Below, piece after piece: positions 41,222 to 57,407 of a stretch of DNA of 64,000 nucleotides. The stretch spans positions 1,623,552-1,687,551 of the forward strand of contig OW818679.1 of NCBI GenBank assembly GCA_942493145.1, read 5' to 3'. Both the position numbers and the translations under genes were made by a program. Source of the DNA: an uncultured Bacillota bacterium. GTDB lineage: Bacteria; Bacillota; Clostridia; Acetivibrionales; DTU013. Within the stretch, counting starts at the first letter, position 1, and each line of letters starts with the position of its first letter. Below the pieces are notes generated by a model that was given only the letters and a program-made list of their open reading frames with translations, was not told the origin of the DNA and ran no database searches.

Positions 41222-41529
41222 GTAGTTAACCACTCCAGGTATTAATTATAAAACGATAAAGCTAAGCTTTTAAATTATGGAGTAATCTGCGCATTGGTCA
41301 ATCACAAAATTTTATAATTTAGTGATTGAATTATAACATAAATTCCACCCCTGCGGGATACATTGAGTTAATTAATTCGGGGTTAAGATGTTATAATGAA
41401 TTATATAAAATCTCAGATATTGTTACAACGGCGGAAATAAGACATAGTAGCGTATGAGTCGGAAAATGGCTAAATTTAAGGCATTGTGCAGGACGGGATT
41501 TAAATTTACACTTAATGTCAAACATTTAA

Positions 41530-41558
41530 TTGACGATAATTAAATATGATGTTATAAT
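41530..41558 (+). promoter_or_regulatory. Sigma-A promoter of the solute-binding-protein gene
   Basis: TTGACG, a 17-nt spacer, then TATAAT with an upstream TG (tgtTATAAT). It is embedded in the repeated 16-mer gatgttataatgaatt. Confidence 0.65.
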
Positions 41559-41672
41559 GAATTCGTTGTGATGCGTATTATAACTCAACTAAATTATACT
41601 TTAATTCCCTGGTGCTAAAACTCATGTACCGGAGGAAGGTTAGTAAATGCTGAAATGAAAAGGGGGATATCA

Positions 41673-43190
41673 ATGATGAAAATTCTCAACAAGGTTTTGG
41701 CAATGGTGCTAGTTGTTGTTTTTGTTTTTGCTATGGTAGGATGCGGTTCCAGTTCATCGGTAAACAATAACCAGCCAACCACTCCGACAAATGCAGATGC
41801 TTCCTCTTTGCCGGAAAAAACCACTGATTCTGGCGAAAAAGTAACGGTTACCTGGGCTACTCTGGCTGGCTTCTATACCGACTGGGCAAAAGGCCTTGCG
41901 GATGAATTCACAAAAAAGACGGGAAACGAAGTAAAAATTGTTGAAATGGATTTGCCGACGATGTATGAAAAAGAGGTTCTTGACATCGTAGGCGGTACTG
42001 GTACATATGACATCATAACCTGGAATGTTTCATGGAAGGGTGAATGGTGTAATGCAGGTTACGTTTATCCGCTGGACGACTTTATCAAGCGTGACAATGC
42101 CACTTACAAGGTTGAAGACATTTCCGAAGCATTGCTGAATGTATCCGGTGTGTGGAAAGGGGTAACTTACGGTCTTCCCTACTACACTTTCACGCCAGGC
42201 CAGTTCTATCGTGTGGACCTTTTTGAGGATGAAACGGAAAAGGCTGCATTCAAGGCAAAATACAGTTACGATCTTGATATCCCAAAAACATATGACCAAA
42301 TGTCCGACATTGCGCAATTCTTTACACGTAAAGCCGGAGACACCCTGAAAGGGGAGAAACTGACCAAGGACTTTTACGGAATTGGCTTGATGGCCGGCCG
42401 CTATGGAAACATATTTGATGAAATCAACACAATCGCTTGGACCTTGGGTGGTGATGTCATCAAGGATGACGGTTCGGCAGGTGTTAATGATAAGAACTAT
42501 CTTGATGCTGTTAACATGTACTGTAAAAAGCTGCTTCCATATGCACCGGCAGGCTCTCTAAGCGGTTCTTACGACTTTGTTGTAGGGCAATTCAATTCTG
42601 GTATGATAGCTATGACCGGTCCGATGTACTTGGATCAATGGCCTAATGCAGTATTGGTTGAGAAGAATATCCCCGGTTCCGAGGCTGGGTGCGCCGGGCT
42701 TCCCGGTGGTGGCAAAACCTGGGCAGGCGCTTTTACATTAGGAATTGCAAAAACCACCAAGAATGCAGAACAAGCCTGGCAGTTCCTGAGTTATATTACC
42801 GGACCTGAGGCGCAGAAGAAGTTTGCTGAAGGCGGCGGGAGTACAACAAGGATGAGCATCTTAAAGGATAAAGAATTCTATACAAGCCATCGTGAACAAG
42901 CTGGTCACTTCCCGGTACTCGTAAACATTCTTGATGATTCTGCAAAGAATTGGTATACGAATTACATCCATATTCCACAAGGCGCCAAGATTTATGAAGA
43001 AGCGCCGACCTGGCTTTCGGCTGCTGCAAGTGGTGAAATGACTCCTGAAGCAGCAATGGATGGCTTTGCTAAGAAGATTAATGAAATGACGGGTGGCAAA
43101 GCGGTAATCAGCAATGAAGGCTTCACAAAACCGTCCGGCTCTTCAGATTATGTATTCGACAAGAGCACTCAGGTCCGTAAACCTAAGTAA
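41673..43190 (+). CDS. ABC transporter extracellular solute-binding lipoprotein (family 1, CUT1 sugar type)
   Basis: Signal peptide with lipobox MVGCGSS. About 500 aa with a typical SBP_bac_1 composition. ATG at 41673 with RBS aaggggg. Confidence 0.85.
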   Translation: MMKILNKVLAMVLVVVFVFAMVGCGSSSSVNNNQPTTPTNADASSLPEKTTDSGEKVTVTWATLAGFYTDWAKGLADEFTKKTGNEVKIVEMDLPTMYEKEVLDIVGGTGTYDIITWNVSWKGEWCNAGYVYPLDDFIKRDNATYKVEDISEALLNVSGVWKGVTYGLPYYTFTPGQFYRVDLFEDETEKAAFKAKYSYDLDIPKTYDQMSDIAQFFTRKAGDTLKGEKLTKDFYGIGLMAGRYGNIFDEINTIAWTLGGDVIKDDGSAGVNDKNYLDAVNMYCKKLLPYAPAGSLSGSYDFVVGQFNSGMIAMTGPMYLDQWPNAVLVEKNIPGSEAGCAGLPGGGKTWAGAFTLGIAKTTKNAEQAWQFLSYITGPEAQKKFAEGGGSTTRMSILKDKEFYTSHREQAGHFPVLVNILDDSAKNWYTNYIHIPQGAKIYEEAPTWLSAAASGEMTPEAAMDGFAKKINEMTGGKAVISNEGFTKPSGSSDYVFDKSTQVRKPK

Positions 43191-43256
43191 CACAAGTTTC
43201 CCATAGCTCTTGAGAATCTTTTATGATGGGAAGGTCACATAAACAACTTGAAAACT

Positions 43257-43288
43257 GAAGGTGGAAAGAAAATCTTCTTTCCACCTTC
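43257..43288 (+). terminator. Hairpin after the SBP gene
   Basis: gaaggtggaaagaa / aatc / ttctttccaccttc forms a perfect 14-bp stem. The tail is weak. Confidence 0.55.
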
Positions 43289-43322
43289 TAATCCAATAGT
43301 AGAGTGCTGGCAAAGTAAATAC

Positions 43323-55399: not shown

Positions 55400-55409
55400 G
55401 AGGGAAGAT

Positions 55410-56000
55410 ATGGCTTCAATAGAAAACGATTTCAACTGGGAAAAGGCATTTACCATTTATTTCGACAAAGTCAGCGGAATGAGCGATAAAAGCAAGCCTA
55501 CCCGTCGTATGCTCTCAAACATGAAGGGGATGTATTTTGATGAAACTGCATATGAGAAAGCACTTAAGGTTGGAGATGCGCTGATATATGAATTCTACGA
55601 ATTGGGAGCGCCTGAAGACCCGGGAGACCTCGCCTTCGGTACAAGTATCACCTATCCCGGAAAAGTGGGAAATGAATTTTACATGACCAAAGGCCATTTC
55701 CATACAATTCTTGATACTGCGGAAGTTTATTACTGCCTCAGTGGTAGGGGAATCATGCTGATGGAAGATATGGAAGGAGATTGGGCCGCCAGGGAATTGA
55801 CGCCCGGGAATGCAGTTTATGTACCGAAGGGGTATGCCCATAGGAGTATCAATGTAGGCAATGAACCCTTTGTGACTTTCTTTGTCTTCAGAGGTGATGC
55901 AGGTCATGATTATGGGACTATTGAAACTAAAGGCTATCGTAAGTTAATTGTCGAAAATAACGGCAAAGTAGAAATAATTGATAATCCTAAATGGAAATAG
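55410..56000 (+). CDS. Cupin-type sugar-phosphate isomerase (archaeal cPGI-like glucose-6-phosphate isomerase family)
   Basis: TKGHFHTILDTAEVYYCLSG ... YVPKGYAHRSINVG is a cupin metal motif resembling Pyrococcus cPGI. ATG at 55410 with RBS ggaggg. Confidence 0.65.
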   Translation: MASIENDFNWEKAFTIYFDKVSGMSDKSKPTRRMLSNMKGMYFDETAYEKALKVGDALIYEFYELGAPEDPGDLAFGTSITYPGKVGNEFYMTKGHFHTILDTAEVYYCLSGRGIMLMEDMEGDWAARELTPGNAVYVPKGYAHRSINVGNEPFVTFFVFRGDAGHDYGTIETKGYRKLIVENNGKVEIIDNPKWK

Positions 56001-56030
56001 CATGATAAAAAAAGAAGGTAGAATAAAAAA

Positions 56031-56684
56031 ATGAATAAAAAGTGGGAAATAATCAAAAAGATTACCGATGTTGGTTTGGTTGTAGTAGTCAGGGCTGAGA
56101 ATTCCGAAGAAGCAAAGAAAATAACCGACGCCTGTCTAGCAGGGGGCGCTGCTGCAATTGAAATTACATACACAGTACCCGGAGCGTCAAAAGTTATCGA
56201 AGATCTTGCAAAAACTTTTGGAAAAGAAATCATAATCGGCGCCGGCACTGTATTGGATCCTGAAACTGCAAGAATTTCGATATTATCAGGAGCGCAATAT
56301 GTCGTAAGCCCATATTTCAATGAGGATGTTTTAAAGCTTTGCAACCGCTACCAGATACCCTGCATGCCTGGGGTCATGACCATCGAAGGCGTTGTCAAAG
56401 CTATGGAATCAGGCGCAGATATACTTAAACTCTTTCCGGGCGAGGCATTTGGCCCAAAAATGATTAAAGCAATAAAAGGGCCTCTGCCTCAGGCAAGTCT
56501 GATGCCTACCGGGGGAGTCAGTATAGAAAATGTCGGAGAATGGATCGAGGCAGGCGCTGTTGCGGTTGGCGCAGGCGGAAGTCTGCTGGCTGGCGCCAAG
56601 ACTGGAGATTATGCCGGCATAACGAAGCTGGCAGCGGAATTTGTTGCAAAGATAAGAGAATCACGCCATAACACTTTTTTATAA
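56031..56684 (+). CDS. eda: KDPG/KHG aldolase family protein (Eda-like)
   Basis: VVVVRAENSEEAKKI..ACLAGGAAAIEITYT, GAGTVLD, and the Lys context KLFPGE are typical of Eda. Confidence 0.75.
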   Translation: MNKKWEIIKKITDVGLVVVVRAENSEEAKKITDACLAGGAAAIEITYTVPGASKVIEDLAKTFGKEIIIGAGTVLDPETARISILSGAQYVVSPYFNEDVLKLCNRYQIPCMPGVMTIEGVVKAMESGADILKLFPGEAFGPKMIKAIKGPLPQASLMPTGGVSIENVGEWIEAGAVAVGAGGSLLAGAKTGDYAGITKLAAEFVAKIRESRHNTFL

Positions 56685-56738
56685 TCGATATGCATTGAGA
56701 AGGGCAAAGTCTGCTGCCAGGAAAGGTATAAGGGAAAA

Positions 56739-57407
56739 ATGAATAAAAATAAACTGATAATCTTTGATCTGGACGGCACTCTTTTTAGAACTGAAACAGT
56801 TGATGTCGAGGCTTTTAATTGTGCACTTGAATTGAATGGATACCGAACCAAAGATAAGGATAAAATTCTCAGCCTTATTGGACTTCCGTTAAAGGATATT
56901 TGCAAAACATTGCTTGAAACAGATGACTCAGATTTGGTGAATGAGTTTAAACGCGATGTCATAAAATTTGAGAATGATTTCATAGCCACATTTGGACAGC
57001 TTTATTGCGGGGTTGAGGATTTTCTCCTAAGGTTGAAAGCAAGTGACTATAAATTGTGTATATGCTCAAATGGAAATAAGGAATATGTGACGGCAATAGC
57101 GGACAAATTTGGTTTCCACCTTATATTTGATGAAATATGGCATGAAAAGGATGGAATATCAAAATCTGAAGCCGTGGGTATGTTAAAAGATAAGTTTGGA
57201 GTGGATGGTTTTATCATGGTAGGTGATAGAACTGCGGATATTCAAGCAGCAAAAGATAATGGCGGGATAGCGATTGGAGTTACATATGGTTTCGGGAAAA
57301 ATGAAGCAGAAAAGGCGGATTATACAGCGAAAGATATTGTTGAAGTAGAAAAGGCAATATGTGAATCTATGTCTTCAAAACCTCGCTGCGAATCTTCTTC
57401 CCGGTAG
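56739..57407 (+). CDS. HAD-superfamily phosphatase (phosphoglycolate-phosphatase-like)
   Basis: Motif I is IIFDLDGTLF and motif IV is VGDRTADIQAA. Its 3' end overlaps the convergent sdaAA gene by 41 nt. Confidence 0.8.
   Translation: MNKNKLIIFDLDGTLFRTETVDVEAFNCALELNGYRTKDKDKILSLIGLPLKDICKTLLETDDSDLVNEFKRDVIKFENDFIATFGQLYCGVEDFLLRLKASDYKLCICSNGNKEYVTAIADKFGFHLIFDEIWHEKDGISKSEAVGMLKDKFGVDGFIMVGDRTADIQAAKDNGGIAIGVTYGFGKNEAEKADYTAKDIVEVEKAICESMSSKPRCESSSR

Follow-up and report, generated by a model that had tools for sequence, protein, structure and literature searches.

The subject of this report is a compact catabolic gene array in a 64,000-nt stretch of contig OW818679.1 from an uncultured Bacillota bacterium; the whole stretch is called the window below, and all positions refer to it. 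Pfam and NCBIfam scans of the window ORFs revealed seventeen genes, all on the plus strand, at 41655-57407. A first-pass annotation had taken this region for a carbohydrate or acid-sugar catabolic locus, a reading that is supported here, and the genes it listed are present on this strand at or near the positions it assigned to them, including the motif GREIWGYQKK in a protein of the acetoacetate decarboxylase (ADC) family. The locus start that it placed at 41326 belongs to a spurious 43-codon ORF within the promoter region, and the ORF of the solute-binding protein (SBP) begins at 41655. The features of the locus are as follows.

41385..41563, plus strand: promoter/operator region 5' of the SBP gene, with two copies of ATGATGTTATAATGAATT and a near-consensus sigma-70-like promoter.
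41655..43190, plus strand: CUT1-type solute-binding lipoprotein of 511 aa (SBP_bac_1, 5e-30).
43377..44168, plus strand: GntR/HutC regulator 1, with HTH and UTRA domains (Pfam/NCBIfam).
44213..44260, no strand assigned: palindrome with 23-nt arms between the GntR genes, holding an operator-like motif and a promoter-like site and followed by a T run.
44303..45025, plus strand: GntR/HutC regulator 2, 76% identical to regulator 1.
45106..45834, plus strand: ADC-superfamily Schiff-base enzyme of 242 aa, signature gene of module A (PF06314, 3e-44).
45847..47382, plus strand: FGGY kinase, xylulokinase-like (Pfam FGGY_N/C; PDB 2itm, 1e-49).
47404..48351, plus strand: ABC permease 1, UgpA/MalF-like (Pfam/NCBIfam), conserved elsewhere.
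48375..49232, plus strand: ABC permease 2, MalG/UgpE-like (Pfam/NCBIfam), conserved elsewhere.
49235..49516, plus strand: small accessory protein of about 93 aa with two hydrophobic putative transmembrane segments, without a Pfam hit.
49513..50625, plus strand: ABC ATPase 1, UgpC/MalK-like, with TOBE domain (Pfam/NCBIfam).
50656..51747, plus strand: ABC ATPase 2, UgpC/MalK-like, 41% identical to ATPase 1.
51775..52464, plus strand: deoxyribose-phosphate aldolase (DERA; TIGR00126, 184 bits against a cutoff of 117.3).
52477..53442, plus strand: D-isomer 2-hydroxyacid dehydrogenase (2HADH), similar to phosphoglycerate dehydrogenase (PGDH), first gene of module B (Pfam, 1e-59).
53458..54435, plus strand: lactonase of the phosphotriesterase (PTE) family, an amidohydrolase (PF02126, 2e-53).
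54449..55399, plus strand: divergent NAD(P) oxidoreductase of the shikimate/quinate dehydrogenase fold (AroE-like), 316 aa, without a Pfam hit (AlphaFold2 model, pLDDT 90.5).
55392..56000, plus strand: cupin-type phosphoglucose isomerase (cPGI; PF06560, 1e-28).
56031..56684, plus strand: aldolase for 2-keto-3-deoxy-6-phosphogluconate (KDPG) or 2-keto-4-hydroxyglutarate, Eda/KdgA (PRK06552, 293.5 bits against 238).
56739..57407, plus strand: HAD-family phosphatase (Pfam/NCBIfam).

Two modules were recognized in this array. Module A consists of the ADC-like protein, the FGGY kinase, the CUT1 importer and the DERA. Module B consists of the 2HADH, the PTE-like lactonase, the AroE-like dehydrogenase, the cPGI and Eda, and is an autonomous conserved unit. 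From the ADC gene through the HAD gene, neighbouring genes either overlap or are separated by no more than 54 nt. A terminator scan of the ADC-to-HAD genes gave no convincing site, candidate sites being no more frequent than in shuffled sequence, and Rfam and tRNA scans of the whole window returned no matches.

The ADC-like protein belongs to the PF06314 superfamily with 151.7 bits against a cutoff of 29.8. Its AlphaFold2 model (pLDDT 85) superimposes on the true ADCs 3bgt, 3c8w and 3bh2 with TM-scores of 0.81-0.85 at 23-25% identity, and its kinship to the aldolase-dehydratases Sbi00515, MppR and Swit_4259 is more remote (15-18% identity); a sequence search of the PDB returned true decarboxylases only. 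In structure the protein is thus nearest to true beta-keto-acid decarboxylases, in line with the decarboxylation first ascribed to it. Its residues K114, K115 and E75 align to Lys115-Lys116 and Glu76 of true Adc and are invariant in 32 orthologues; we take the corresponding residues of the Clostridium acetobutylicum enzyme to be the Schiff-base lysine, its partner lysine and Glu76. Relatives of the protein form more than 300 clusters at 90% identity, distributed across phyla and 65-92% identical to it, and the best 120 hits are 70-90% identical. The closest genomic ADC-like gene (92%) lies on a 6-kb contig, L006, of a metagenome-assembled genome (MAG) labelled Bacteroidota, where the importer genes are 79-84% identical; this far exceeds the expectation across phyla and suggests a mis-binned contig or a recent transfer. 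ADC-like genes of 69-70% identity were also found in three cyanobacterial MAGs (L039, L043, L044) among unrelated housekeeping genes, with a DeoC-like gene near the one in L043 only.

To describe the conservation of module A, one genome per species was scanned for the ADC-like protein, which gave a total of 43 ADC loci; these loci were then compared with the window proteins by tblastn, and all their ORFs were clustered. They come from Oscillospiraceae, Christensenellaceae, Lachnospiraceae, Lawsonibacter and many Anaerolineae, and further from Desulfobacterales, Anaeromyxobacter, Acidimicrobiia, termite-gut Bifidobacteriaceae and cyanobacteria. The ADC gene stands directly beside the orthologous importer (SBP, permeases, small protein and ATPases) in about 20 of the 43 loci from at least six phyla, Clostridia, Chloroflexota, Desulfobacterota, Myxococcota and Actinomycetota among others. 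Neighbours from the window set are the FGGY kinase and 2HADH (22 loci each), DeoC (21), GntR (16), Eda (14), cPGI (13), the AroE-like gene (12) and PTE (11). Families outside the window set include zinc-dependent alcohol dehydrogenase (Zn-ADH, 10), short-chain dehydrogenase/reductase (SDR, 9), aldehyde dehydrogenase (8), SGL/MRJP-type lactonase (7), aldolase of the dihydrodipicolinate synthase (DHDPS) type (5) and aldehyde:ferredoxin oxidoreductase (4), and dehydrogenases are the commonest enzymatic neighbours of ADC. The FGGY gene is adjacent or divergent to the ADC gene in about ten loci. The whole window set was found in a Christensenellaceae MAG (L012), and the smallest operon (L045) has the order DeoC-FGGY-ADC-SBP-permeases-ATPases-GntR.

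Several variant loci hint at an acid or lactone as the substrate. L010 possesses a tripartite ATP-independent periplasmic (TRAP) transporter, whose binding protein is closest to 4p47 and 7bbr, together with an Amidohydro_2 lactonase and an aldo-keto reductase (AKR); 4p47 and 7bbr are, we presume, aldonate binders. L028 has a YiaK-family Ldh_2 gene, L031 a UlaG-family metallo-beta-lactamase (MBL) fold gene and L047 an AP_endonuc_2 gene. A protein with 4Fe-4S dicluster and nitroreductase domains was also observed beside ADC in L001, L005, L008, L009, L010, L011, L014 and L033; in L008 a CUT2 transporter and a C_GCAxxG_C_C redox protein are encoded with it.

The importer of the window has the components of a CUT1 system, namely an SBP_bac_1 protein, two BPD_transp_1 permeases and a MalK/UgpC-type ATPase. 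Orthologues of the SBP with 43-69% identity adjoin ADC-like genes in about 20 loci, its closest solved structure being 5iai (E 5e-21), which is cited in papers on ribitol conformation. The small protein with two transmembrane segments is kept beside the importer in at least 15 other loci at 32-66% identity, and both ATPases are conserved in other loci. A single MalK-type ATPase would be usual; the two different ATPases and this small protein set the importer apart, and the arrangement is kept across phyla.

The kinase of module A belongs to the FGGY family and scores 330 bits with the XylB model TIGR01312, below its cutoff of 380.25. The aldolase, previously described as merely DeoC-like, is indeed encoded by a DeoC gene and is a true DERA by its TIGR00126 score; solved DERAs match it at E 1.6e-43.

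Among the module B proteins, the 2HADH has PGDH as its best NCBIfam match (271 bits, below cutoff). Phosphoglycerate dehydrogenases oxidize the 2-hydroxyl group of phosphorylated hydroxy-acids. The PTE protein is a member of PF02126 (182.5 bits against 22.4) and reaches 154.7 bits with the phospho-furanose lactonase model NF045706, far below the cutoff of 630. Its closest solved structures are 3pnz and 3msr/3ovg (E 1e-35), which we take to be the phospho-sugar lactonases Lmo2620 and that of Mycoplasma synoviae, respectively. The AroE-like protein fails the AroE models (best NCBIfam score 36 bits against cutoffs of 200-413) and shares the fold alone. Foldseek comparison of its model recovered shikimate and quinate dehydrogenases and the 5-ketofructose reductase of Gluconobacter with E values of 1e-15 to 1e-16 at 15-21% identity, which confirms the fold assigned to it in the first-pass annotation. 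The cupin aligns over its full length to the cPGIs of Thermococcus litoralis and Pyrococcus furiosus (1j3p, 4lta; E 3e-60) and keeps TKGHFH, AEVY and AHR; the TKGHFH, E and H motifs presumably provide the metal ligands and the catalytic glutamate. This homology with intact residues argues for hexose-6-phosphate-like intermediates. Eda also passes TIGR01182 with 185.5 bits against 156. The HAD gene recurs with the modules in a few other loci (L010, L028 and Bacillales).

Module B was also traced on its own. The AroE-like query has at least 8000 relatives, including those of cultured Peribacillus, Paenibacillus, Metabacillus, Neobacillus and Pullulanibacillus, and the series 2HADH-PTE-AroE-like-cPGI-Eda forms its own operon, often led by a GntR/UTRA gene, in cultured Bacillales and in close clostridial relatives. 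In some cases the operon extends to genes for a CUT2 ABC transporter, two Zn-ADHs, an SDR and a HAD protein; in others it stands alone. A total of 82 loci were surveyed, 80 of them contributed by a metagenome scan. Here cPGI was found in 59 loci, 2HADH in 48, PTE in 45, FGGY in 39, Zn-ADH and Eda in 37 each, CUT2 ABC components in about 25, AP_endonuc_2 in 18, Gfo/Idh/MocA in 17 and DeoC in 10, and the AroE-like gene adjoins the cPGI gene nearly always. In Pullulanibacillus camelliae (L051, 7025-7822) a gene of PF01182, the 6-phosphogluconolactonase/NagB family, stands just before the module-B 2HADH-PTE pair; it hints at a 6-phospho-hexonolactone-like intermediate besides the PTE substrate.

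No ADC-like gene was found in 85 module-B loci (the surveyed loci together with L132 and L133). The array had been regarded as a single unit led by the ADC gene. The 2HADH-to-Eda block is instead independent of that gene, whose own constant partner is the ABC importer, followed by FGGY, DeoC and a dehydrogenase. Mapping of the neighbourhoods, which had been proposed as a check, shows that both modules are conserved separately and that the whole set is not one indivisible pathway; ADC and module B are joined in 12 of the 43 ADC loci. The expectation that the gene set is co-conserved elsewhere holds, co-conservation being far above chance in the ADC and module-B loci. Likewise borne out is the lack of the usual sugar-acid dehydratase: Pfam and NCBIfam found no Edd (ILVD_EDD) in the window locus, so that it does not conform to an Entner-Doudoroff pathway, and ILVD/EDD, enolase-superfamily and UxuA/UxaA dehydratases are not enriched near either module in the 43 and 85 loci. 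Only one locus, from Bifidobacteriaceae, and L021, with a B12 diol dehydratase, depart from this.

The module-B genes of the window share 65-84% identity with their counterparts in ADC-less operons (2HADH 65-71%, Eda up to 84%) and only 40-67% with those of other ADC loci, and the window FGGY kinase is closer to the ADC-linked kinases. The module-B identities fit an insertion of module A, from ADC to DeoC, between the GntR gene and 2HADH. The simplest reading of these sequence relationships is that module A entered a module-B operon typical of the lineage, with duplication of the regulator. The 12 joined loci belong to unrelated phyla and vary in gene order; they include Acidimicrobiia, Leptolinea, Oscillospiraceae, Christensenellaceae and a deltaproteobacterial symbiont. 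Module-B loci that lack ADC, too, repeatedly contain a DeoC-FGGY pair. Because of the repeated joining in varied orders and this recurrence, a functional link between modules A and B seems more likely than a chance juxtaposition.

Putative regulatory signals were found at the 5' end of the array. The 18-nt motif ATGATGTTATAATGAATT occurs at 41385-41402, 41546-41563, 43339-43356 and 44223-44250, with five window matches at three or fewer mismatches against 0.35 expected by chance. It overlaps the -10 elements before the SBP gene (two copies), where the sigma-70-like promoter lies at 41530-41558, and before each GntR gene, and is a plausible and likely operator for the HutC-type regulators. The palindrome at 44213-44260 resembles a terminator for regulator 1. 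No copy of ATGATGTTATAATGAATT precedes the ADC gene, and the ADC-to-HAD genes are therefore probably read through from the promoter of regulator 2. Translation of regulator 1 probably starts at ATT 43446, 3' of the ribosome binding site AGGAAGGA. The frame of regulator 2 is open from 44285 and has no canonical start (ATG, GTG or TTG) ahead of 44603 or of the HTH domain; its likely start is ATT 44303, after GGAGAGGA. Both paralogues show a GGAGG-like ribosome binding site before the putative ATT start and an out-of-frame ATG within GGATGG.

On this basis we propose, with a probability of about 30%, that the locus is a GntR-controlled super-operon for an imported substrate of the acid-sugar, lactone or deoxy-sugar type, operating by a two-module mechanism. 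In module A, an imported hydroxy-acid would be converted by a neighbouring dehydrogenase into a beta-keto (3-keto) sugar acid, with whose ketone Lys-114 of the ADC-like enzyme would form a Schiff base; decarboxylation would release a neutral keto-sugar, to be phosphorylated by the XylB-like FGGY kinase. A route of 3-oxidation, kinase and decarboxylase has a precedent for C4-C6 sugar acids with unrelated enzyme families (PMC12994016). In module B, the cPGI would convert a ketose phosphate into an aldose phosphate, the AroE-fold dehydrogenase would oxidize C1 to give a phospho-lactone, the PTE-like lactonase would open this lactone, and the PGDH-like 2HADH would oxidize the C2 hydroxyl to a 2-keto acid (a 2-keto-3-deoxy-phospho-acid), which Eda would cleave to pyruvate and glyceraldehyde-3-phosphate (G3P). 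DERA would serve a branch from a 2-deoxy-aldose phosphate to acetaldehyde and G3P, and the HAD enzyme probably would remove phosphate from a side product. Since no dehydratase is encoded, the Eda step needs a skeleton that is already 3-deoxy. This need, together with the 2-deoxy need of DERA, makes deoxy or acid sugars probable as the substrate rather than a common hexose. The order of steps suggested in the first-pass annotation (lactone opening, oxidation, decarboxylation, phosphorylation, isomerization, cleavage) leaves both the 3-deoxy substrate of Eda and the presence of a true DERA unexplained. A wider proposal is just as tentative: the ADC-like clade may be a new class of sugar Schiff-base enzymes, either beta-keto-acid decarboxylases or dehydratases, joined to a dedicated importer and a dehydratase-free module B. 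Taken together, these would constitute a widespread undescribed pathway, mostly of uncultured anaerobes, with a predicted dedicated CUT1 importer having a heterodimeric ATPase, and module B would run from a 3-deoxy-hexulose-6-phosphate-like intermediate to KDPG by means of the cPGI, an AroE-fold sugar-phosphate dehydrogenase, a PTE-fold phospholactonase and the PGDH-like dehydrogenase.

Several observations weigh against the two-module mechanism. Decarboxylation of a 3-keto-aldonate gives an ordinary ketose, which is neither 3-deoxy as Eda needs nor 2-deoxy as DERA needs, and the link between modules A and B is therefore chemically incomplete. The minimal operon L045 has no dehydrogenase to make a beta-keto acid, the cyanobacterial ADC-like loci have no operon context, and module B often occurs without a kinase or transporter nearby. 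The nearest solved relative of the SBP, 5iai, which we take to be ribitol-bound, would be a polyol binder rather than an acid binder. In the ADC-like protein, the Arg29 position of true ADCs is Met28 and the Glu61 position is Ser, and the acetoacetate decarboxylase model PRK02265 scores 92.6 bits, under the cutoff of 150. Kinship with the decarboxylase branch, combined with this altered active site and sub-cutoff score, argues for a Schiff-base enzyme with a different substrate.

The same features bear on the alternative that the ADC-like protein works, as Sbi00515, MppR and Swit_4259 do, by Schiff-base dehydratase or aldolase chemistry and is itself the missing dehydratase. It might, for example, turn an imported aldose, ketose or Amadori-type compound into a 3-deoxyosone, from which an aldehyde dehydrogenase would make a 2-keto-3-deoxy acid; the 3-deoxyosone could also reach KDPG through a reductase, the FGGY kinase and module B, or the protein could act directly on 2-keto-3-deoxy acids. 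The loss of the R29 and E61 equivalents speaks for such a change of chemistry, as does the absence of aldonate dehydratase families near ADC and module B despite Eda or DHDPS-type aldolases, lactonases and sugar dehydrogenases. ADC, aldehyde dehydrogenase and Eda or 2HADH are adjacent in the Anaerolineae loci L017, L021-L023 and L027, with aldehyde:ferredoxin oxidoreductase and GlcD/F-like genes in L017, and AKR genes stand beside the Oscillospiraceae loci. HutC-type regulators and CUT1 importers moreover resemble Amadori (frl) loci. However, both fold and sequence are clearly nearer to the true decarboxylases than to the aldolase-dehydratases, the lysine dyad is retained whereas the aldolase-dehydratase clade has lost the second lysine, and DERA would get no direct role. 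We consider this alternative unlikely, if the least so of those weighed here.

It is also conceivable, and slightly less probable again, that separate operons merely share orientation and regulator, a sugar uptake-kinase-DERA module (for deoxyribose or another sugar) with an ADC-like accessory lying next to an unrelated module B. The 85 independent module-B loci without ADC, the stand-alone GntR operon of close relatives, the 31 of 43 ADC loci without module B and the different nearest relatives of module-B and module-A genes in the window would all conform to this. Yet in the window module A is flanked by the GntR genes and module B, the gaps being 12-54 nt long and free of terminators, ADC and module B came together independently, and with varying gene order, across taxa, and DeoC-FGGY pairs accompany module B even where ADC is absent. 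Distinctly improbable is a non-orthologous version of the L-ascorbate/2,3-diketo-L-gulonate (ula/yiaK-S) route or of the route from L-gulonate to L-xylulose, in which lactonase opening and a reductase would lead to 3-keto-L-gulonate and, with a LyxK-like FGGY kinase, ADC would replace UlaD/SgbH in the formation of L-xylulose(-5-phosphate). The lactonase, keto-acid reductase, FGGY kinase and decarboxylase families suit the logic of that route, individual variant loci contain genes of the YiaK, UlaG and UlaE families or for a TRAP transporter, and the nearest PTE relatives are presumably phospho-sugar lactonases, those of Mycoplasma in ula-like operons. On the other side, the 17 products of the locus include no match to UlaD/SgbH, UlaE/SgbU or UlaF/SgbE, so that it cannot be counted as a ula/yiaK-S system; the route offers no function for Eda, DERA, cPGI or the AroE-like enzyme; PTE is present in just 11 of the 43 ADC loci; and the SBP is CUT1 and polyol-like.

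Other candidates were rejected. The D-apiose/apionate and C4 acid-sugar pathways were discarded, DUF1537, RuBisCO-like protein, PdxA and class-II aldolase all being missing. Lsr/autoinducer-2 processing would combine an FGGY kinase with a DeoC-family protein, but the aldolase here is a true DERA and not LsrF-like, and LsrG is not present. For myo-inositol catabolism with malonate-semialdehyde decarboxylation, no IolD-like thiamine diphosphate enzyme was annotated among the large neighbouring ORFs; a cyclitol link may exist, given the recurrence of Gfo/Idh/MocA and AP_endonuc_2 with module B. Decarboxylation of KDPG or its unphosphorylated form (KDG) to deoxyribose(-5-phosphate) fits in stoichiometry and was judged mechanistically unlikely because a lysine imine gives no stabilization in the decarboxylation of an alpha-keto acid. 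Sugar-pyranase or ring-opening activity of the ADC-like protein, by analogy with RbsD, fits L045 and is otherwise unsupported.

Comparison with known systems shows both shared logic and different parts. The ula/yiaK-S systems of Escherichia coli resemble the locus in uptake by a binding protein or a phosphotransferase system, lactone hydrolysis, keto-acid reduction, phosphorylation by an FGGY kinase (LyxK) and a decarboxylase step that turns a 3-keto sugar acid into a pentulose phosphate. Their decarboxylase (UlaD/SgbH), however, has the orotidine monophosphate decarboxylase fold, their lactonase (UlaG) is an MBL-type enzyme and the epimerases UlaE/UlaF act last, whereas the locus offers candidates of the ADC and PTE folds, no epimerases, and additionally cPGI, the AroE-like enzyme, Eda and DERA. 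The 3-oxo-tetronate (OtnK/OtnC), 3-oxo-isoapionate (ApnO-OiaK-OiaX) and Ltn3D routes also pass, like the proposal, from a 3-oxo acid through a kinase and a decarboxylase to a ketose phosphate (PMC12994016), but with a DUF1537 kinase and class-II-aldolase or RuBisCO-like decarboxylases, none of which is found in the locus. The Entner-Doudoroff pathway and its semi-phosphorylative form share with the locus a sugar(-phosphate) dehydrogenase, a lactonase and a KDPG aldolase yielding pyruvate and G3P. In the locus, by contrast, Edd or another aldonate dehydratase is missing, the dehydrogenase has the AroE fold instead of being Zwf, the lactonase has the PTE fold instead of being Pgl, and an extra 2HADH and the cupin isomerase are integral.

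At the level of single enzymes, Adc and Sbi00515, MppR and Swit_4259 agree with the ADC-like protein in fold and in the position of the Schiff-base lysine; the ADC-like protein differs in being encoded in sugar-uptake operons and not in solventogenesis or antibiotic clusters. The closest solved PTE relatives, the lactonases Lmo2620, Bh0225 and MS53_0025 of M. synoviae, act on pentono-1,4-lactone-5-phosphates; the window protein, lying far below the NCBIfam cutoff, may differ in substrate from the Lmo2620-type lactonases. In deoxyribose catabolism by DeoK-DeoC, too, DERA is encoded alongside transporter and sugar-kinase genes. An intermediate of the oxidative deoxyribose/deoxyribonate pathway is 2-deoxy-3-keto-ribonate, a beta-keto acid that resembles acetoacetate more closely than any other sugar derivative does. 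Unlike these pathways, the locus has an FGGY instead of a PfkB kinase, lacks a beta-keto-acid cleavage enzyme, and contains module B, for which they have no counterpart.

Full-text literature searches combining the topics of ADC, FGGY, lactonase, PTE, cupin PGI, shikimate dehydrogenase, apiose and deoxyribose found no described pathway that explains module A or module B, in agreement with the earlier statement that none of such composition is known. The family of every protein and the general logic of binding-protein uptake, dehydrogenase, lactonase, kinase and aldolase are already known. New are the ADC-fold enzyme conservedly coupled to a sugar importer, the five-gene dehydratase-free module B and the fusion of the two. 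Both modules are common, and module B is testable in cultured Bacillales and the combination of ADC and module B in a Lawsonibacter isolate. A solution would give the first sugar-metabolic function in the ADC superfamily and a physiological context for orphan PTE-like phospho-sugar lactonases, explain the bacterial cupin PGIs and the divergent genes currently mislabelled as 'shikimate dehydrogenase family', and reveal a carbon source of abundant uncultured Anaerolineae, Christensenellaceae and Oscillospiraceae of guts, digesters and sediments.

A GerA operon in the window at 28.8-32.7 kb marks the host as a spore-forming Firmicute, and the locus genes are most closely related to genes of Clostridia MAGs. 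Genes for the alpha and beta chains of L-serine dehydratase (57367-58916, minus strand) are convergent on the locus, the alpha ORF sharing 41 nt with the 3' end of the HAD gene. Further upstream, the window encodes a molybdopterin oxidoreductase (13177-15858, plus strand) with a domain like that of the pyrogallol hydroxytransferase large subunit, in a stretch whose G+C content is raised to 0.53 against about 0.40 for the window. A PAS-GGDEF-HD(HD_5) protein (22607-24991, plus strand) lies in a stretch of G+C 0.31-0.33, and a second PAS-GGDEF gene is located at 35453-36442.

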